Shown here one piece after another: positions 5,022-41,880 of a DNA stretch of 64,000 nucleotides (within the stretch, counting starts at the first letter, position 1; each line of letters opens with the position of its first letter). The stretch lies in the NCBI GenBank assembly GCA_041694255.1, contig JASMTN010000021.1, positions 231 to 64,230 of the forward strand, in the 5' to 3' direction. This DNA is from Candidatus Altimarinota bacterium. Its GTDB lineage: Bacteria > Patescibacteriota > Gracilibacteria > Absconditabacterales > Absconditicoccaceae. The notes beneath the pieces were generated by a model. That model did no database searches and was not told the DNA's origin. It saw nothing but the letters and a program-made list of their open reading frames with translations. The position numbers were made by a program, and so were the translations under genes.

Positions 5022-5465
5022 TTAATAATTCAATACTTTTTTGATTTGATTTATAGTATATCATTTTCTAGTAAGTTTTTGTAATATATCAAGTTGATTA
5101 ATATCTTTTGCTTTATATTTTTCAATTTCTTTTCTTATTTGATTTCAAATTCATTCATTTATATCATCTATATTTTCTCATATAAGTTCTTTTACATCAT
5201 TCATGTTAACTCACTTTTCTGCTAAACGAGATTTAACATATATAATAGGCTTTCACTTCCTTATAAGATGTGAATCTATATAAGATTTTATAAACTCCCT
5301 ATCATTAAGGTAATTTTTTTCTTTTAGATAGGTTATTGCTCTTTCTATATGATGTTCTGTATAACCCTTTTTTCTAAGTTGTATTAAAAGCTCTTTTTCT
5401 GTTTTGGGATACCTAAATATATAATTTAATGCATAATCTATAATATCCTTTTTTTGATTTCACAT
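5022..5465 (-). CDS. recX: RecX-like regulatory protein
   Basis: 147-aa ORF with repeated helical modules (ELLIQLRKKGYTEHHIERAITYLKEKNYLNDREF..., ILQKLTRKGYTINQIKKVL) typical of RecX. Confidence 0.55.
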
Positions 5466-7274: not shown

Positions 7275-7832
7275 ATGAATATAATCAATTTAATAAAAAA
7301 ATATCGAACATTTTTTTCTCTAGTATGATTTGTTTTATTTTGGGTGTTTTTATTTAACCAATATAGTCCTCAAGAAATTGTAAGTTATATATGATTAGAA
7401 AATGCTTACCTAGTAGTTTTTCTTGTATGAGCATTTTGATGAATATCCACATTAACAGTCACACATTTTTATACAACTATTATAACTTTAACAATATGAT
7501 GAGCAAACCCTTTTTTAATTTGAATATTTGCATGAACTTGAGCTAGCATATGAGATAGTATATTCTATTATCTTTGAAAAAAATGAAAAAAATTAACTAC
7601 TAGCTTTCAAAATAAAATAAAACCAATTTCAGATTGGATTCAAAAACAACCTAAAAAATTAATTCAATTTTTTATTTTTCTATATGCTTGATTTATTCCA
7701 TTTCCAAAAGATTTTTTAATGCTTGCATTAGCATTTTCATGATTTTCATATAAAAAGATAATAATCCCTCTTTTGATTTGAAATATTATTAATTTAAGTA
7801 TATTAGCTTATATAAGTTGAAAATTTTTATAG
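7275..7832 (+). CDS. DedA/VTT-like membrane protein (putative)
   Basis: 185-aa hydrophobic code-25 ORF with a GASIGDSIFYYLGKKG segment. Confidence 0.45.
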
Positions 7833-13513: not shown

Positions 13514-13549
13514 TACCCTAAACTTACTTATTTAATAACTTTTTTCAAA
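13514..13549 (-). repeat. 36-bp perfect direct repeat, copy A (contains the promoter-like element upstream of recG)
   Basis: Identical to 17090-17125. On the minus strand it reads TTTGAAAAAAGTTATTAAATAAGTAAGTTTAGGGTA (TTGAAA-N16-TAAGTT). A TATAAT lies just downstream at 13510-13515. Confidence 0.85.
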
Positions 13550-17089: not shown

Positions 17090-17125
17090 TACCCTAAACT
17101 TACTTATTTAATAACTTTTTTCAAA
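17090..17125 (-). repeat. 36-bp perfect direct repeat, copy B (promoter-like, upstream of methylase 16284-17066)
   Basis: Identical to 13514-13549. Confidence 0.85.
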
Positions 17126-31311: not shown

Positions 31312-33612
31312 ATGAACAACTGCCAACCTAAAGTAAATATAAGTTATCATTGAGGAATAGAAGATAAAAAAGAAGGAATTAGTTTAACATGATCATCAAC
31401 ATTAATGAAAATAAAAGATGAACTTTGATGATATATAAATATAATATTTGATTATTGAATGCATCAATGATGATATAAATCAAATAATCTAAATGAAAAT
31501 ATTGATAATGAAATACTAAAAGCAGACTTTCTTATAATAACACATGCACATATGGATCATGTATGAAGAATACCTATGTTAATAAAAAATGGATTTAAAT
31601 GAAAAATAATAATGACAAATCTTACAAAACAAATAACACAAGCAATGTTAAGTGATTATGTAAGATTAACAGAAAAGCAAATAAGTGAAGTAAAAGAGCA
31701 AAATAAAAAAATATGAGAAACATTTAGTAGGCACATACAAGCAGTAAAAATATATGATGAATTAATAAAATGATGAATTAAAAAAAATGAAAGAGAAAAA
31801 AAAGAAAGAAAATTAGAACAGCTAATATGAGAAAAAGTAAGATATTGAGAAATTAAGAGAAAAAACATTAAAGAAAAAATAAATGAAATAAAGAAATTAT
31901 TAAAAAAATATCATATCAAAAATGAAAGTGATATAAGGCTAATACAAAAAGAAGAACCTGTGTTGTTATATGATTTAGATGATGTATATAAAACAATATC
32001 TAGAGTGGAAACAATTGAAGTATGAAATGAAATAAATTTAGATAATAGAATCTTCATAAATAATAAAGATGATAATAGGATAATATCATTACCTAAAATA
32101 ATTAGAGAATGATACAACAAAAAAATATTTGTATTGCCACATATCAAAGCACATATAGTAAATAAATTAAAAAATTATTTAAACGAAATTGCAAAACATA
32201 ACACAGAAAATAAAAATATTAGAGAAAAATTAAAAAAAATATTAAAAAAGAATAAAAAAACTGATAATGAAAAAAAATTATTAAAAAAATATTGAATAGA
32301 AAAGGTAGATGATATAGAAAACTTAAAAAAAGAAATAATAAAGTTCCCATATACTTATGATGAAATTAAAACAGTTTCAAAAAATTTAGAATTAGTTATT
32401 GATAAAAATAAAAATAAATTTTTAGAAAGTATAAAGCTAAATTTTCATAATGCATGACACATAGAATGAAGCATTCAAGCTACAGTAAGTATAGTTACTG
32501 ACAAAATAATAGATCTTTTATGACAATCACCTCAAAGAAGGTCTTTTGAATGAAAAAAAAGAATTGAAAGAGAATTTAAAAATTTTTGATTTTCTTGAGA
32601 TTTATGAAAAATAACAGAACCAAACATATCATGAAGTCCGGAGATACCATCATATAGATATGACTTTTTTCAATGTGAATCCACATATGCAGATAGAGAA
32701 CATCCTTGCAAAAAAGAAGAGTTCAAAATGTTTATTAATGAAATATATAAAACAAAATGAAAAGTTTTAATACCAGCATTTTCTTTACAAAGAACTCAAG
32801 AAATAATGCTAGAGCTATTACAAAACAAAATATCAAAGCAAGATCTTATAAAAAAATACTGACAATTAAAGCAAGAACTAAGAAAACTTAATATGGAACT
32901 TGCAAAATTAATATGAAATCAATATATAGAAAAAGATTATGAACATAAAGTAAAAAACATTAAAGAAAAAATTGAAATAATTAGTAATGAGATTGATAAA
33001 GTTTGAGAGCAAGTATTTTTATATGAAATAATTGTTGATTCTCCATTATCAAAAGAAATTAGTGATATATTTTTACATAATTTATGAGAAAAATACAAAC
33101 TACTTGATAAAAAAGTACAAGAGGATAAAATATGAAAAAACACAATAACATATCTTGAAGATAATGAATATAAAAAACATTACACAGATAAAAGAATAAA
33201 TAAAAAAGATATAATACTTTCATCTTGATGAATGCTACAGTGATGAGCAATAACAAATCATATAAAATTATTAATTTGAGACCCTAATTCAAAAATTATA
33301 TTTACTGGATATCAAGCAGAATGAACATTATGAAGAGAGTTGATAGATTGAAAAAAACAAATAATAATAGATTGAGAAGTATATGATGTAAATTGTCAAA
33401 TAGTACAAATAAGGTGATATAGCTCACATATATGAAAAAATGACCTTATAAATTATATATGACAATATTTAAATTTTTCAAAAAAATCAATAGTAGCATT
33501 AAATCATGGTTGAGAATCAAGAAACCATCTTGCATATGAGATAAATAAATTAAATCCCTTGCAAAAAATAGAAATTCCAAAACTTTGAGATACAATAGAA
33601 ATTAAACTCTAA
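31312..33612 (+). CDS. metallo-beta-lactamase / beta-CASP family nuclease (RNase J/CPSF-like) with large K/E-rich insertions
   Basis: 766-aa code-25 ORF. Contains ITHAHMDHVGRIP (HxHxDH), HNAGHIEGS, CESTYADREH, GYSSHIGKNDL and ALNHGG. Confidence 0.65.
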
Positions 33613-34090
33613 CATATTCTAAAAATTCAAAGCTTATTCAGTTTTCTTCCTTTTTTCAACTACGAGAAGATAATTTAAAATCTTCTTGTATTTTTTTTAT
33701 AAAATTTTGTTCAAAAAACACATCACAATTAAAATTTGAATAAACTTGAGTTATGTATATTTTATCAGCATACTCTATACCCTCTTTATATATTCTTTTT
33801 CCTCACATTAAAAAAATATCACCTGATGTATCTTCTATAGCTTGTTTTAAACTAGAAAAAACTTTATAATTATCTGCTAGATCCAATGAAGAGGATATTA
33901 TTATATTTTCCCTTCATGGTAAAGGTCTAACTTTTTCTGGTAGTGAATTCCAAGTATTTTTTCACATAATAACAGTTTTTCATTTTGTTTTTTGTGAGAA
34001 AAATTTCAAATCTTCTTTAATAGTCCAACAAAGGTCATTATTTTTTCATATACCATAGTTTTCATCCATTGCAAATATAAGGTTTATCAT
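33602..34090 (-). CDS. folA: dihydrofolate reductase
   Basis: 162-aa ORF. Contains MINLIFAMDENYGIGKNNDLCW, TVIMGKNTWNSLP, PLPGRENIIIS and IFLMGGKRIY. Its 3' end overlaps the convergent gene by 11 nt. Confidence 0.85.
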
Positions 34091-34117
34091 TTCTCTACTT
34101 GAAAAAAGTTAAAAATT
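34090..34117. repeat. 28-bp perfect direct repeat, left copy (island 2 boundary)
   Basis: TTTCTCTACTTGAAAAAAGTTAAAAATT, identical to 40316-40343. Starts at the first base of the folA start codon complement. Contains the last codons and stop of res. Confidence 0.9.
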
Positions 34118-36730
34118 TAATAATTTATCATCAAAAGCTTCTTCAAAATCTATTTCTAAATCTTTATTGTATAATGGTAATCAAATAAGTTTATAATTTC
34201 AAAAGTTAGAATCAATAATCTCTGCCTTTTCATCTATTCAAGATAAGAATTTTTCTTTCCATCATTCTTTTGAATTTCAAAATAATCATTCAGCATCTTT
34301 AAATTGACTTCACTTAGGTTCTATAAATATTTGATAAGTTAAAGGTTTTTTAGTTTCTTTTTCTTTCATAAATAAAACAAAATCTGGTTCAAATCTATCT
34401 CAATCATCAAAAGAATATATTGCAAAGTGTCTTTCATTTCTTATTAAATATATATCATCATATTTATTATTTAAATCTTGTAACTTCTTTTCAAATAGTT
34501 CTATAAGATGTTTTTCTTCACTTGTTGCTGTTATTTTATCAAATACAAACCAATCTTTATCTTTTGTATAGTCTTCATAAGAATTTACTTTTATAGTTTT
34601 ATCTTTAAATATTTCTGATATTGCTTTTGCATCAAATGCAGTAGTTCATTCATATTTTGTTTCTTGTTGTTTAATCTCACTTTCCATAGATTTTAATAGT
34701 GCTGATACTGCTTTTAATAAATCATCACTGTTTAAGTTGTCTAAAACTTCTTTTGAACTATATAAATCAATTCTTTTAGATGAAAGATATTTATAGTCTG
34801 TAATAAATTCATCTATACTTTTAAGTTGTCATATATAATTTTTGAGATTATCAAATTTATAAAAATCATTTTGTTGTATAGCTTTTCTAATTATTTTTTT
34901 ATCTATATCTTTCATTTGAAAGCTTTTAGGTTCTTTCTCTTGTTTTTTTCAAACATCTTTTTCATTATTTTCAAAAACTTGTATATCTCAACTTTTACCA
35001 GTATGTAGTGTAAATTCAAATCTTTCTATTTTCATTCATACTTCTTCTAAGCTTTTAACTTCTTTATTATCTTTTTCTTGTCTTTTATTAGTATAGATAT
35101 ATCAGTTTTTATAAAAATTTGTTTGTTTAAAACTTTCTTTAAGTTTAAGAGTAAATTCCTTTTTTTCTTCTTCATCCATCATTCAAGTATCTTTTAAGGC
35201 TTGTTTAATTTCTGTAATATATAATCAGTCTTTATCATAAAAAGTATGATAGTAAAAAGTTTCTAATATTTTCAATTCTTCATCTTCTTTTTTATCAAAT
35301 TTTCTTTTATATTTACTTTCTCATAATGCTTTTTCGGTAGTAAATGGAAAATATCTTGCTCATCTTCATATAAGCTGTGCTTCAGACATTGTTTGAGGTC
35401 AAACTTTTACTTTTCAAGTTTTTTTATCAACAACATTACTTCTTGATTCATAAAGTCTTACTATATCAAAAAGATTTAAAACATCCCATCATTCATTTAA
35501 CTTTTGAACTGCAAATATAGCTCTTATTCTATTATCTTTTTCTTCTAAAGTATTTAATAAAATTTGATTTTTATTTGCTTGTTTATCATCATTTGCACTT
35601 ATACAATTTTCTTCAGCAAAATCTTGTTTTAATTCATTTGTAATATCTTCCAAAGATAAATCATTGTTACTAAAAAAGTTGAATGCTTTTATAAGTATAT
35701 CTTCATTTGTTATGTTTTTTATTCTTTCAAGGTCTTCAGCTTTTAAGTTTTTTATTAGTTTATTAAATTTATCAAGATTTTCTTCACTTTCAGCTATTGT
35801 TTTTTGTGCCTTAAAAAGAATAACAGGTTTACAATATATGTTATTTTTTTCTGCAACTTTCAATCTATACTGACTTAAAATAAGGGCTTGTAATATCCTA
35901 TCTTTTTGTTCCATATCAGCTTTTAAAATATCTACTTCTTTGCTATATCCATCAAGTCTAAATTGTTTTAGATCATACTTATATATTATCTTATCAATAT
36001 ATTTTTCTGCTATATTTTCATTTTGTAAATCTACTGTTGCTGTAAATTCTAAAAGTAAATTGTCCTTATGAGATTGTAATATATTTTTAACAGTATATTC
36101 CCAAGAAGATTTTTCCAATTCTTCGGTTTTATTTAATTTTCATTTTTTTGTAGTGCTGTTTATATGATGAGCTTCATCAGAAATTATTGCTACCTTATTT
36201 TCTTTAAAATCTTCATAAGAAAGTCAGTTTTCTTTTGGAAAATTTAAATCCATATGTAATCATTGTATAGTAGTGAATTTTATATTTATATCATCTTTTT
36301 TAGATTCTGCAAAATTATCAACTTCTTTTATATTTATTTGTTCACTATCAAAAGTTATTTTTTGATTAAAAAGGTATTTTGAAGAGTTTGAATTTAAAAA
36401 ATTTTCTTTAGTTTTTTCTATAATATTTGTAGAATTTACAAAAAACAGAAAGTTTTTATATCATTTTTCATAAAGTTCTAAAATTAAACTTGCCATTATG
36501 AAAGTTTTACCACTTCAAGTTGCCATATTGAAAAGCAAATGAATAGGTTGTATTTTATTTGGATATTGATTAAAATAATAAGAAAATCTTGCATAAGCTT
36601 CTTTTTGATATTCTCTTATTTCAAAATTTTGATTTAAGTTTTTTGAAATATATAAAGGGATAGTTTTATCTAAAACTCACATTTCTGATAATGTATCAAG
36701 TTTTTGATATAAGAATTGTTGGTTTTGCAT
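34109..36730 (-). CDS. res: type III restriction enzyme Res subunit (SF2 helicase + PD-(D/E)xK nuclease)
   Basis: 873-aa code-25 ORF. Contains MATGSGKT (Walker A), ISDEAHH (DEAH), FTATV, QKLNEGWDVLNLF, and C-terminal FEPDFVLF...FIEPKG. Frame agrees with track ORF 35489-36118. Confidence 0.85.
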
Positions 36731-36743
36731 TTTGTTAGTTTAA

Positions 36744-37238
36744 TTATAATGTAAATATAAGTATAACAAACAATATTATACTAATTCATAATATTAAAGA
36801 AGACTTTTTTATATTTTTCATTTTATAATTAGCAATTGTTGAGTTTATATATATCTGTTCTAATATTTGTTTTTCTTTTTCTGTGTTTGATAATTTTTTA
36901 TATCATTTAATAAAATCTCATATCTCCATACTTGATATACTTCAAAAATAGAAAAAGTTTTTGCAAGATAAATTATTGGTATTAATATTTGGATAAACTG
37001 AAATTAATAAAAAAGTTATTCAAACTATAATAGACAATATAAAAATAAGTAGTATTCATAAAGTAATATAATCACAATTATTTAAATTTAAGAAAACAAA
37101 ATCAGACCTATTCCAAATAAGAAAAGTTATTAATAAAGCATAATATGTTGATAACAAAGTAAACTTTTGTTCTGCAAATTTTATCCATTCATTAACTTTA
37201 CTTAATTCATTCTGAAGTATTTGTATTTTATCTGACAT
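36744..37238 (-). CDS. 2-3 TM effector-like protein (Pycsar PycTM/DUF5706-like)
   Basis: Track ORF 37056-37238 extends through TGA to 164 aa. N-terminal helix with NEWIKFAEQKFTLL (FA-D/E-x-K-like) followed by TM helices, plus a C-terminal TM. Immediately downstream of the cyclase gene. Confidence 0.5.
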
Positions 37239-37265
37239 TTATAATTATATTTATATATAAATTTT

Positions 37266-38075
37266 TTAATTATCTAATTGTATTATATTATTACACCAGT
37301 CTTTTCAGTGTTTTTCACACCAATTACTTTTCAATACATATGCTTTATTAAAATCAAATCTATTATCTTTTAATAAATTTCTTGTATTCCATAACTCTTC
37401 TTTATATCAATGATTTTCACTGTTAGTACATCAACAAGATTTAGTAACTAACTCTGAAGTATTAATATTTTCATAGTACCTATCAGAAACATATAATTCT
37501 CATTTATCTGAAAGTGAAGCTAATTTTGCAGACATATTTATTGGTTTTCAAGCCCATACTTCATTTTTTCTATCATCTCTATCAGAATTATTTTTTAATC
37601 ATAAAGATTTTACCAATACTGTTTTTTGGTCTATTCACATATGGTATCAGATTTCTACTTTTCAATTAAGTTTTTTGGTTACTTTTGGTATAAAAGTATT
37701 ATCAGCAAAAGTTTTAAAAGTTATAGCAGATGCGAAAGCAGTAAAGGGTTTATTTTTAGAAAAAAGAGCGAAAACTCAATCTCACTTAATATCAATGTAT
37801 TCTGCTCACATATTATGAAAAGTTTTTATTGCAGTGCCAGTGAAAAATTCATAAATGTTTGCTGTTGTATTTTGATGAGAAGTAGCACTCAACCCTGTAG
37901 AGTTTTTTATATCAACAAAAACTGAAATCACATCTTTAACTTTATACCAATGATTCATTGGATATTTTCAATTTGATGGAAGATTGTTAATATTTTGTAT
38001 AGATACACTATTATTAAACTTTTCAACTGAGGAAGCTATAATTTTATCTATATTATCCAAATATTGATTGCTCAT
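37266..38075 (-). CDS. class III nucleotidyl cyclase-like protein (Pycsar PycC-like)
   Basis: 269-aa code-25 ORF, checked codon by codon. VISVFVDIKNSTGL (metal-binding Asp motif) and IDIKGDGVFALF (GDG motif). Cys/His-rich C-terminal tail CGC...H...C..H...C. Confidence 0.6.
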
Positions 38076-38080
38076 AATTT

Positions 38081-40018
38081 TTACCCCTTATAAAATAAAT
38101 CATTCAATTTTTTATCTTCATCGTCTATATTATAAGTTTCATCTTCCATTTCACTATAATTTACATATAATAAGTTTTTATCAAGTAATTCTATCAAGAA
38201 TTTTTTCATATTTTCTATAGAAAGATTTTCAAATTCTTGTATATTTTCATCAATAGTTTTTATATCTACATCATAGTTTATAAATCAAGTTTGTTTGATT
38301 TGTGAGTAAATATCAAGTAATGCTTGTTTGTCTTGTGATTTATTTATCTTGTTTATAAAAATTTGATTTGATTCCATAGTTTCCATATATACAAAATCTC
38401 ATCATCATTCCCAATTTACAGATTTACTAATTCATCATTGTTCTCATTCTATTACTTTTTTCATTCTCTCACAAGTTATATCTTGTATATAATCCATTTG
38501 TTCAATTCCTATATATTGTCTTCACATTTTATGAGCTACGGCAGTAGTTGTTCAGCTTCATAGATGATAATCCAAAACTATATCTCAAGGATTTGTTGAA
38601 AGTTCTATTATTCTTTGAATTAGTTTTTCTGGTTTAGGAAAAGAAAAAACTTTATTTCAAAACATAATATTTAATTCTTTATTTGCCTCAGAATTATTAG
38701 TAAAGTCTATAATATTTGAATATGGAGTTTTAGATTCATATCATTCATATCTTTTTGTATATACAGACCATCAATTTTTGGTTTTAATAAATTCTATATT
38801 TCAATTATTTAATTCTTCATAAAATCTTTTTTCAGAAAGTCTCCATTGCCAATCTCTATTTTTTGATAATCATTCTTTTCTTTGTTTAAATTTTTTTTCA
38901 TCATTTCAAGGATAAATATTTTGTCAATTAGGAGATGAAATTATAAAATCATTATTTGGTCTATATTCTAAACCTCATCTATCTAATTTTTCAATATTAT
39001 ATTTTCATTTTTCATCTTGTCTTTTAAAATCTATATTAAGAATTCTTTTATTTAATTCAGTAAGATTATCAGTTTTTCTAAATAAAAGAATATTTTCAGT
39101 TTGCACTGCAATAAATTTTGAATCATTTTTTCAAGAAGATTTTTTATATACTATGCTTGAAACAAAATTTTCTCTTCCAAAAACTTCATCCATCAAAACT
39201 TTTAAATAAGCTTGTTCATTATCATCACATTGTACAAAAATAACTCAATCATCTTTCAATAAATCTTTTGCAACTTCCAACCTATTTTTCATAAAAGTAA
39301 GCCAAGTTGAATGATTGAACCTATCATTATAACCAAAACTATCATTACCAGTATTATAAGGTGGATCTATATAAATAAGTTTTACTTTGTTTGCAAATTG
39401 TTTCTTTAATGAATGCAGTATAAGTAAATTATTTCATTTTATTATCAAATTATCTGTAATAGTATCTTCACTCAATCATCTTTTTTTATTCAATTCTTTA
39501 TCTTTATTGAATCAATCAAGTTTATGTTCTCAATTTTTATCTATTCTTTTATAGTTTGTAAATACTTTATCATCCAAAAGTCTATCAATTTCATCTTGTC
39601 ATAAAATTTCATTATAAAAAGTTTCTTGTCTTTTGCTATCTTCTTTATCTTGTCATCCAGCTAATACACAATCTTTGAAAGGAAAAGAAAGCACAACTTC
39701 ATTTGAAGATGATATATAATCTCAAGATTTATTTGTAAGTCATATTTTATTTTTGAAACTTGTATAACTATCAGGTAAAAATTCTTTATTGTTTACAAAT
39801 TGTACAAATTTTTTGCTATCAAAAACTATTACATCTTTTATAGGTTTAAAAAATACTTTTCTTGTATCATTATTTTCCAAAAGTAAAGAAATAAGATTTT
39901 CATCAAGTTTTTCTGCCTTTTCTCTGATAGTATTTTTAAGTAAATATCAATCTTGAGATACAAACCTTTCATCTTGTTTTAAAACCTCTATAAGTGTATT
40001 TTGTAGTTTGTTTTGCAT
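38081..40018 (-). CDS. mod: type III R-M Mod subunit (N6-adenine methyltransferase)
   Basis: 645-aa ORF. Contains LIYIDPPYNTGNDSFGYNDRFNHSTWLTFM, DDGVIFVQCDDNE and VLDYHLGSGTTTAVAHKMGRQYIGIE. Confidence 0.85.
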
Positions 40019-40058
40019 AGGTTTACATTTTAAAATTAATATAAAAAGATAGATCTAT

Positions 40059-40241
40059 TTAATTTTCCATATTTTCTTTCCAATATTTTAAAGCTTCTTC
40101 TTTAGTATCAAAAAACATTTCATCAATTTTTTCAACTTCATCAAGAGGTATAGGTCAAGATATAACATATTTTTCATCTATAGAAGAATAATCTAATATA
40201 TATCTATATCAATTTTTTATAAACTCTTTAATTCTTTTCAT
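40059..40241 (-). CDS. small hypothetical protein, first ORF of the island 2 operon
   Basis: 60-aa code-25 ORF. Confidence 0.3.
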
Positions 40242-40315
40242 TTTTATTTGTTAAAGATTTAAAATGATAATTAATATAAAATAAAAATATATTTATAATT
40301 AACATAAAATCAACC

Positions 40316-40343
40316 TTTCTCTACTTGAAAAAAGTTAAAAATT
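40316..40343. repeat. 28-bp perfect direct repeat, right copy (island 2 boundary, contains TTGAAA upstream of thyA)
   Basis: Identical to 34090-34117. Confidence 0.9.
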
Positions 40344-40381
40344 CTATATTCTAAAATTATTTATAATTAAAGAAATTAAAA

Positions 40382-41413
40382 ATGCAACATGGAGAATTTC
40401 AATATCTAAATTTGCTAGAAAAAATAATAAATGAATGAATTGATAAAAATGATAGAACATGAGTTGGTGTAAGATGAATATTTGGTTCTCAAATGAAGTT
40501 TGACCTTACAAAATGAGATTTTCCACTTCTTACAACAAAAAAAACTTTCTTAAGGTGAATAGTTGTTGAACTTATATGGCTTATAAGATGAGAAACAAAT
40601 ATAAAATATCTAGTAGATAGAAATGTACATATATGGGATGAATGGCCTTTTCAAAATTGGTTAGATAATTCAAATGAGGTAAATGCTACAAAATATCCAA
40701 GATATTCTAAAGAATGGTTAGAACTTAAACAAGAATGGATAGAAAAAATTAAAAATCTTGAAGAAACAAATGAATGGGTATTAAAATGGTGAGACCTTTG
40801 ACCAGTATATGGACATCAATGGAGAAACTTTTGAGGTTGAGAAAGCTTTTCTTCTTGGGTAGAAGATATATCAAAAAGACAATGGTGAACACCTTGATGA
40901 GTAAGTGCCCTATCAAATACAAGTGGTGCTGACCAACTTAAACAAGCTATAGAAAAAATTAAAAATAAACCTACTGATAGAAGAATTATAGTAAGTGCTT
41001 GGAATCCATTACAATTTGATATGATGTTATTACCTCCTTGTCATATGTTCTATCAATTTAATGTAGATACAACAAATAAAAAATTAAACTTACAAATGTA
41101 TCAAAGATCTGCTGATATGTTCTTATGAGTTCCTTTTAACATAGCTTCTTACTCTGCTTTATTGCTTATAATAGCAAAACTTACTTGACTAGAACCTTGA
41201 GAATTTACTCATACTTTATGAGATGCTCATATATATTCAAATCATTTTGATCAAGTTAATACACAACTTTCAAGAGAGCCTTTCCCTTTTCCAAAACTAG
41301 AAATTAAAAAAGAACTTAATACTATAGAAGATATAGAAAATCTTGAATGGGAAGATTTTGCTCTTATATGATATGAATCACATGAAAAAATAAAAGCTCC
41401 TGTTGCAGTTTAA
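40382..41413 (+). CDS. thyA: thymidylate synthase (ThyA) with internal insertions
   Basis: 343-aa code-25 ORF. Contains [78 protein letters not shown] and GDAHIY. Trp is encoded by TGG throughout. Confidence 0.9.
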
Positions 41414-41432
41414 TAATTTAAAATAATATAAA

Positions 41433-41588
41433 ATGAAAAATAATAAAATAAAAGAAAGTGAATGAAAAATAAAAGAGAACAAAGAAAAAGAAAATGAAAA
41501 TAAATTAAAAGGATGGTCTGTTTTTGATCAACTAGAAGAGCTACTCAAAAATGAGGAAAAAAAATGAAATAAAGATCTTTTTAAATAG
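41433..41588 (+). CDS. small K/E-rich hypothetical protein
   Basis: 51-aa code-25 ORF, low complexity. Confidence 0.2.
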
Positions 41589-41592
41589 GTTT

Positions 41593-41880
41593 TTATATTA
41601 TTAATTTTATAATAAGTACCTTTGTCCTGGGTACTATTTTTGCTATACAAGTTAGCACCTCATTTGAATCTTTATCAACAACTAACGGCTCTTGAAAATA
41701 TTCAATATTTTCTTTTCATTCTTCTACCAGAACTTTACATATTCAACAAGCTCAGGACATACATCAAAAAATAATACCATCAAAATTAACCTTTTCCATA
41801 GCATCTATAAATGCAATTTCTTGACTTATTTCAATTTCTTGAATGTTTTCTCATATTTTATTATGTATTATAAGTTTCAT
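41593..41880 (-). CDS. 2Fe-2S ferredoxin-like protein
   Basis: 95-aa ORF with a GCMSGACGICKV (Cx4Cx2C) cluster motif plus a later Cys. Confidence 0.55.

Follow-up and report, generated by a model that had tools for sequence, protein, structure and literature searches.

Restriction-modification (R-M) units were reportedly found inserted with long target duplications by Nobusato et al. in 2000. We analysed a stretch of 64,000 nt (hereafter, the window; positions 231 to 64,230 of contig JASMTN010000021.1, assembly GCA_041694255.1) from an organism that a ThyA search of a large protein collection places among the Gracilibacteria, and describe in it a defence island that compares closely with those units. 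The island comprises a small open reading frame (ORF), orf60, and genes mod, pycC, pycTM and res; it lies between folA and thyA, and is bordered by a perfect 28-bp direct repeat. Our best explanation, to which we assign a probability of about 0.72, is that the operon was acquired horizontally and inserted into the leader of folA without the action of a recombinase and with a long duplication of the target.

Following Nobusato et al. (2000), Furuta, Abe and Kobayashi (2010; PMC2853133) described R-M "insertion with long target duplication" as inserts of less than 20 kb that contain R and M genes and are devoid of mobility genes, and whose repeat aligns once with an empty site elsewhere. Their examples cover R-M Types I to IV, including a Type III system in Campylobacter, from hosts that are mostly naturally competent; the repeats frequently include a start or stop codon, which lets the target gene survive, and no mechanism is given beyond a suggested double-strand breakage (PMC2853133). 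For screening they used a cut-off of >30 bp of duplication, set to exclude the cores of attachment (att) sites (PMC2853133). The locus in the window resembles this class in its mod and res genes, in the size of the insert (6,198 bp), in the lack of mobility genes, in the existence of an empty site in a relative and in a repeat that spans codons, but its repeat of 28 bp, of which around 4 nt may be microhomology, falls short of the cut-off. Because the remaining traits of the class are all found, we regard the island as similar in its working to this class and as most probably a member of it; the >30-bp limit is operational and not mechanistic, and thus weakens the formal assignment but not the functional resemblance. 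The island differs from the described examples in its host, a bacterium from the candidate phyla radiation (CPR) that uses genetic code 25, and in the nesting of a Pycsar pair between mod and res. It also differs in its target, the leader of an essential gene, with folA becoming the last gene of the operon, and in that the same genome brackets non-R-M cargo (AbiEii, AAA ATPases) in a similar manner.

Three other kinds of systems are comparable to parts of the locus. The Pycsar system, formed by PycC and PycTM, is said to have been described by Tal et al. in 2021, with a structure in PDB entry 7r65. The pair in the window is similar to it in having a cyclase of around 270 amino acids (aa) with a membrane effector of the PycTM family directly after, but it is not free-standing and is instead located inside a Type III R-M operon. 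Likewise, the abortive gene prrC is embedded in the EcoprrI Type I locus; as there, the island would have an abortive module co-transcribed between the modification and restriction genes, in a slot whose content varies, although here the frame is Type III, the cargo is of the cyclic-nucleotide signalling kind and any functional coupling between the R-M proteins and the cargo is hypothetical. Finally, the island shares with cis-mobilizable elements (CIMEs) and integrase-less islands the lack of a recombinase and the possession of direct repeats of att-like length. It differs from CIMEs in that the genome encodes no cognate integrase and no element-borne copy of the repeat was detected, and in that the edge of the island corresponds to a stop-codon junction with microhomology.

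Target, repeat and junctions of the island

The closest available relative by ThyA (contig L038, P0122; 78% identity) carries folA and thyA in the minus and plus strands, respectively, with a distance between them of 74 bp in the gene calls, or of 65 bp with the same upstream ATG as in the window. The spacer of L038 is colinear with the 28-mer, differing from it at 6 of the 28 positions, and then with positions 40344-40381. When the flanks of the window were joined through one copy of the 28-mer they produced a single, unbroken 1,605-nt high-scoring segment pair to L038, with 82.6% identity. Since L038 has an uninterrupted, single-copy locus, the 28-mer is target sequence and the 6,198 bp between the copies, plus one copy of the repeat, correspond to the insert. 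Other relatives contain thyA in different arrangements and without the island, and across the family folA and thyA are mostly co-directional. Two genomes from the same genus (G001 and G002) were discarded as empty-site controls because they are too distant, with around 35% aa identity in a neighbouring gene and no match to thyA or folA. Overall, the sequence comparisons strongly support that the island is an insertion with a target duplication of 24-28 bp.

The repeat, TTTCTCTACTTGAAAAAAGTTAAAAATT on the plus strand, is exact in both copies (Table 1) and is the longest perfect repeat of the region; its edges are sharp, with only 6 matches in the next 10 nt. The ends of the island lack terminal inverted repeats. 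We found no third copy with three or fewer mismatches within the window, where shuffled sequences expect 0, or across the 934-kb genome, and scans for the exact 28-mer in genome and metagenome contig collections gave no match. What recurs is a 12-nt core, TTGAAAAAAGTT, with 14 copies in the genome versus 1.7 expected (window positions 34099-34110, 40325-40336, 13537, 17113, 17642 and 21910, and eight other genome sites). This core is directly preceded by terminator hairpins in two cases and followed, 16 nt downstream, by a -10-like hexamer, and it probably represents the -35 region favoured by the promoters of this organism; a role of the 28-mer as a dispersed recombination site was therefore rejected. 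The reverse complement of the 28-mer also has TAACTTTTTTCAA in common with a 36-bp repeat from elsewhere in the window, because this is a promoter-like motif.

The original prediction, made from the sequence alone, had placed a small-ORF/mod/cyclase/transmembrane/res operon between perfect 28-bp repeats in the divergent spacer of folA and thyA, and this observation is confirmed: the five genes are all on the minus strand, L038 supplies the empty site, with the target duplicated at the borders of the island, and the spacer left after removing the insert and one repeat, foreseen as around 65 bp, is exactly 65 bp. Its statement that the island lacks integrases and transposases also holds, as Pfam and PADLOC profile searches revealed no integrase, transposase or other recombinase in it. 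The prediction further proposed to look for an empty folA-28-mer-thyA site and for other genomic copies of the repeat, of which the first was found and the second was not; it also considered that the 28-mer could be a common dispersed promoter sequence, which is only true for its 12-nt core.

Comparison of res genes resolves the left junction to a few nucleotides. The deduced products of 20 homologs end in KLIN*, KLINL*, KLIK*, KFIS* and similar, whereas Res from the window ends in KLLNF*; the corresponding nucleotide ends are AAG TTA ATA AAT TAG in the related operon from contig L049 and AAA TTA TTA AAT TTT TAA in the window. Homology to the Res family reaches the AAT codon and homology to the target begins at AATTTTTAAC, leaving an overlap of only around 4 nt (AATT); therefore, the incoming DNA ended at, or within 1-2 bases of, the native res stop. 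The joint replaced this stop codon, adding one residue and a stop supplied by the target. The left copy of the repeat starts at the folA ATG and contributes the last residues of Res (N, F and stop; 34109-34117), as had been proposed. Discounting the AATT microhomology leaves a true duplication of 24-28 bp. At the orf60 side (junction 40315/40316) we did not see any shared bases.

We propose that a 6.2-kb orf60-mod-pycC-pycTM-res fragment would have been acquired from other code-25 bacterium, or from its mobile element, and incorporated by illegitimate, recombinase-independent recombination into the folA-thyA spacer, inside the folA leader, with duplication of 24-28 bp of the target and joining of the res-side end through the AATT microhomology. 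Uptake of DNA through ComEC could be the route of entry. Genes for ComEC and RecA are present in the genome, and DNA-uptake genes are widespread among CPR bacteria, including Candidatus Vampirococcus lugosii (PMC8080830). The duplication would have preserved the leader and start of folA, as well as the spacer upstream of thyA together with a TTGAAA box (40325-40330), and the event probably survived between two essential genes because both were spared.

Origin of the island and alternative explanations

The genome uses translation table 25 (TGA = Gly), a feature absent from the original prediction. Reading of the region with table 11 was rejected, because it yields no long ORFs and shattered frames, whereas table 25 resolves the genes; near the start of thyA, the glycines of the motifs RTGTG and LRGDTN are encoded by TGA. 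The island contains around 100 in-frame TGA codons, so it evolved in an organism that reads TGA as glycine, i.e., a code-25 donor. The closest Res outside of this genome is that from V. lugosii, with 86% aa identity; the DNA identity with V. lugosii is 87% for res (over 36750-34122) and, in blastn comparisons, 85-89% for both ends of mod. Conversely, the genes neighbouring the V. lugosii operon have counterparts in our genome that are only 33-55% identical, and from this difference we conclude that the R-M backbone was recently transferred horizontally between code-25 lineages.

The related operons occur in different contexts in contigs L046, L047 and L049-L051: L046 adjoins gyrA, L050 and L051 adjoin rplK, and L049 belongs to a prophage-like region that also encodes RecT, ImmA and a large serine recombinase. 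Large serine recombinases are found near two of these operons (L049, 3563-5143; L051, 6460-7950), from which it follows that the same R-M backbone also travels on recombinase-driven elements. In L049-L051, res is followed by a gene for around 370 aa, while the island in the window stops at res, as would be expected for a fragment rather than for a defined element. We did not find flanking repeats of at least 15 nt around the operons from L046 and L049-L051, or viral contigs with the Res backbone by the search method used.

Exact direct repeats of at least 22 bp separated by 0.5-30 kb in the same contig amount to 40 pairs in this genome, versus 0-1 in shuffled genomes. Many of the pairs are paralogous segments or CRISPR arrays, but several isolated pairs bracket accessory genes (Table 1). 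At least four further bracketed blocks carry, together, AAA_14-DUF4143 plus AbiEii, two AAA ATPases, two uncharacterized K/E-rich proteins and another R-M cassette, and are devoid of recombinases.

Among the alternatives to a recombinase-free insertion, the one that survives best, although unlikely, is site-specific integration, with the 28-mer as the attL/attR core of an element whose integrase was lost or, as with CIMEs, served in trans. A block of 28 bp has the typical length of att identity, and the presence of large serine recombinases beside the operons from L049 and L051 gives this idea some appeal; these enzymes, however, exchange strands at a 2-bp core and do not leave a 28-bp direct repeat. 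Besides, no recombinase is found in or beside the island and, in the whole genome, there is only one Xer-sized tyrosine recombinase (contig C41) and one 156-aa serine recombinase (contig C20), both off the island contig. Neither does the structure of the island fit well, since it ends exactly at the res stop with only around 4 nt in common with the target, does not include the gene found after res in the relatives linked to recombinases and has no other copy of the 28-mer in the genome. The other bracketing repeats differ from it, and their unrelated sequences and variable length, from 26 to 78 bp, argue against a single site-specific system. A dif/Xer arrangement, like that of integrative mobile elements exploiting Xer (IMEX), was also rejected: the 28-mer can be split as 11-6-11, with arms complementary by eye at only 5 of 11 positions, and the other bracketing repeats are unrelated.

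Still less likely is that the island is old at this site and that the empty site from L038 is secondary, originated by deletion between the repeats. Perfect direct repeats can indeed drive precise deletions, and a single outgroup leaves the polarity unproven. Nevertheless, the repeats would still need an insertion event, other relatives carry thyA without the island, and the identity of the two copies, together with a backbone 87% identical in DNA to that from a distant Absconditabacteria genome, points to a recent arrival.

We give slightly lower chances to a Campbell-type integration, by a RecA-dependent single crossover between the chromosome and a circular DNA with the same 28 bp. The cell has a RecA, the product would be repeat-island-repeat and, in favour of this possibility, a repeat of 28 bp is close to the minimum required by RecA for exchange in E. 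coli. But the foreign molecule would have to match a poorly conserved leader, in which even L038 shows six changes, and the sequence downstream of the res stop is unrelated in L046-L051; additionally, the Res-family homology enters the repeat for only around 4 nt, so that the latter does not seem to have arrived with the foreign DNA. Very improbable, lastly, is an assembly artefact in which an episome or strain variant was threaded into the chromosome through the shared 28-mer, because, even if this is a metagenome-style assembly of 42 contigs with 149-nt contig-end overlaps, the repeat is much shorter than the final k-mer implied by overlaps of 141-149 nt, so that the junctions must be spanned by real k-mers, and also the res frame closes neatly in the repeat and the same architecture occurs at other loci of the genome.

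There are, nonetheless, several points that weigh against a recombinase-free insertion with long target duplication. The sole empty site comes from a relative with around 82% DNA identity, and not from a sister strain, and a single relative leaves unfixed the timing and direction of the event (gain here versus repeat-mediated loss in L038). The duplication of 28 bp, or 24-28 bp of true duplication, is just under the >30-bp cut-off and within the range of att cores, and the other bracketed blocks are candidate insertions known from this genome alone. The junctions, as well as the uniformity of the population, are those of the assembled sequence. As for the position of the insert within the folA leader (see below), the assignment of the promoter derives from two sequences and from consensus matching in very AT-rich DNA, and an internal promoter may exist in the 3' end of res, given that promoter-like hexamers appear at chance density.

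Consequences for the expression of folA

The stop codon of res and the ATG of folA are separated by 18 nt (34091-34108), and the intergenic gaps from orf60 to res are 40, 5, 27 and 13 nt. We did not find any terminator-like site on the minus strand from 33000 to 41600, and the RNA of the res-folA junction folds no better than shuffled sequences (z = +0.99). Both the short distance and the lack of a terminator between these two genes had been anticipated in the original prediction.

The minus strand of the ancestral spacer contains a -35 box, TTGCAT (40382-40387; overlapping the thyA ATG, as the complement of ATGCAA), separated by 16 nt from a -10 box, TATAAA (40360-40365), and there is a second -10-like box, TAGAAT, at 40348-40353. 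The three boxes are conserved in L038 and all are on the thyA side of the right copy of the repeat. If TATAAA or TAGAAT belong to the folA promoter, it would then follow that the insert landed in the folA leader and that this promoter now reads into the island; folA would probably be the last gene of a unit of around 6.7 kb, orf60-mod-pycC-pycTM-res-folA. From this gene arrangement, read-through from the defence operon into folA is likely and the simplest expectation; we do not word it more strongly because promoter-like hexamers appear at chance density in this DNA of 22% G+C (70 found versus 77.5 expected from shuffled sequences).

The genome has one copy each of folA and thyA and lacks ThyX. 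In the thymidylate cycle, the activity of ThyA makes dihydrofolate reductase necessary; consequently folA, being single copy in a ThyA-dependent organism lacking ThyX, should be essential. It had been suggested that this would tie an essential gene to the retention of the island. We consider this addiction idea weak, because recombination between the perfect repeats restores the original locus, and such a precise deletion rebuilds the promoter-folA arrangement; only polar, partial or imprecise lesions of the island would be counter-selected.

Insertion of R-M systems with long target duplication is already known, and what is new here is an unusual host and an instructive junction. The island is a nucleotide-resolved case of the recombinase-free entry of an R-M system, for which there is an empty site, a relative near to the donor and both junctions. 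The class was named more than 20 years ago and still lacks a mechanism, and in this respect the microhomology of around 4 nt at the res side is instructive. The locus also extends the class to the CPR and to an alternative genetic code, where transfer is limited to code-compatible donors, suggests that the process moves non-R-M defence cargo too, and brings an essential metabolic gene, folA, to the end of a defence operon. A more ambitious generalization, which we put forward tentatively and hold to be rather doubtful, is that long, variable target duplication reflects a general, recombinase-free way of gene acquisition in uptake-proficient CPR bacteria and Gracilibacteria, reaching beyond R-M systems, and that the folA promoter was captured as a transcriptional "hostage", with polar inactivation or silencing of the island being counter-selected.

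Genes, cargo slot and genomic setting

The coordinates of the features of the locus, as well as those of the cargo slots from related operons and of the repeat-bracketed blocks, are shown in Table 1.

Table 1. Features of the folA-thyA locus and of comparable loci. Positions are those of the window unless other contig is indicated; Pfam and PADLOC matches are given with their E values or bit scores.
Feature	Position	Strand	Observations
folA, dihydrofolate reductase, 162 aa	33602-34090	-	PF00186, E = 3.3e-43, full length
Left repeat copy	34090-34117	.	folA leader including A of ATG; inner 9 nt encode Res N, F, stop; colinear with L038 spacer
res, Type III restriction subunit, 873 aa	34109-36730	-	PF04851, 1.1e-31; PADLOC REase_III, 1.8e-145
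pycTM, Pycsar transmembrane effector, 164 aa	36744-37238	-	PF18967, 47.9 bits (cut-off 27.2); PADLOC PycTM PDLC02364, 1.7e-29
Cargo segment pycC + pycTM	36751-38087	-	Other defence genes take its place in related operons
pycC, Pycsar pyrimidine cyclase, 269 aa	37266-38075	-	PADLOC PycC PDLC00763, 1.3e-107
mod, Type III methyltransferase, 645 aa	38081-40018	-	PF12564, 1.7e-22; PF01555, 2.5e-52; PADLOC MTase_III, 1.1e-190
orf60, 60 aa	40059-40241	-	First gene of the island, promoter-proximal
Non-coding right end of the island	40242-40315	-	Promoter-like TTGATT-16-TATATT, 40313-40286; 9/12 matches, consensus match only
Right repeat copy	40316-40343	.	thyA-direction -35-like TTGAAA at 40325-40330; colinear with L038 spacer
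Ancestral spacer remnant	40344-40387	-	Candidate folA promoter, now facing the island
thyA, thymidylate synthase, 343 aa	40382-41413	+	PF00303, 3.3e-110
mod-res slot	L046 4658-6279		PDC-M59A/B
mod-res slot	L047 1500-3003		PDC-M59A/B
mod-res slot	L049 8210-8995		261-aa protein of no known identity
mod-res slot	L050 7162-8991		AAA_15/AAA_21 ATPase
mod-res slot	L051 1420-2322		Abi_2
36-bp repeat	13514-13549 / 17090-17125
78-bp repeat	C17:4355-4432 / 7439-7516		AAA_14-DUF4143 ATPase and AbiEii toxin, between UDP-GlcNAc epimerase and polysaccharide flippase
26-bp repeat	C17 20717 / 24770
28-bp repeat	C40:2425-2452 / 5299-5326		Two AAA ATPases, between two glycosyltransferases

Judging from their profile matches, mod and res are a full-length Type III R-M pair, for which methylation and ATP-dependent cleavage are predicted. 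The product of mod is composed of a Type III N-terminal domain followed by an N6/N4 methyltransferase domain. Res covers nearly the full length of the REase_III profile (positions 13-860 of 873) and contains a ResIII helicase-type ATPase and a C-terminal nuclease region; its gene is downstream of mod in the same strand, with the two cargo genes between them. The centre of mod (around 38636-39158) has no DNA similarity to mod from V. lugosii, which is consistent with a swapped target-recognition domain and, with it, a different methylation specificity.

The cyclase and the transmembrane protein are a Pycsar pair by their profile matches, with a predicted function in defence, a system that went unrecognized in the original prediction. 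PycC matches in full length (residues 3-269) PDB entry 8jsz, deposited as a uridylate cyclase (E = 3.3e-81), and the protein is around 55% identical to a solved uridylate cyclase; PycC is thus probably a uridylate cyclase and cyclic UMP is the likely Pycsar signal. The gene for PycTM, which belongs to a known class of Pycsar effectors, starts 27 nt after pycC.

The DNA match to V. lugosii is lost at the stop codon of mod (38087/38088) and picks up again 20 nt ahead of the start codon of res (36750/36751). The space between these two points is filled by PDC-M59A/B in V. lugosii and in L046, and by diverse genes in other related operons. Close relatives of PycC in other code-25 genomes are free-standing (L028, L043-L045). 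As deduced from this comparison of operons, the gap between mod and res serves in this Type III family as a slot where abortive-infection modules are exchanged.

The first gene of the island, orf60, had no match in Pfam, PADLOC, PHROGs or NCBIfam, and no homolog in the related islands, in the thyA loci of the relatives or elsewhere in its own genome; likewise, the related operon loci contain no counterpart of orf60 or of the 74 bp that precede it. The idea that orf60 was a small gene ancestrally present beside thyA was also rejected, because it is not similar to the small ORFs adjacent to thyA in contigs L039 and L040.

With respect to the flanking genes, folA is the single match in its own genome, with base 34090 as the A of its ATG, and its 3' end overlaps by 11 nt (33602-33612) a convergent gene for a metallo-beta-lactamase/beta-CASP nuclease (766 aa; 31312-33612). 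ThyA, with 343 aa, exceeds the 266 positions of its Pfam profile by around 75 residues that appear as internal insertions, which are common to the closest ThyA proteins from Gracilibacteria (343-348 aa).

The genome, of 934 kb, is 93% complete. Many of its contig ends overlap by exactly 149 nt, and some of the overlaps are three-way (C21:67431 with C22:26430; C23, C24 and C30); these overlaps are joins of the assembly graph and could serve to scaffold the genome or could mark repeats or strain variants. Two contigs contain CRISPR arrays with the 36-nt repeat GTTTCGACGACTGTTATTTCAGTCTTTTAGTTAAT, at C2:5140-5650 and C25:47-460.

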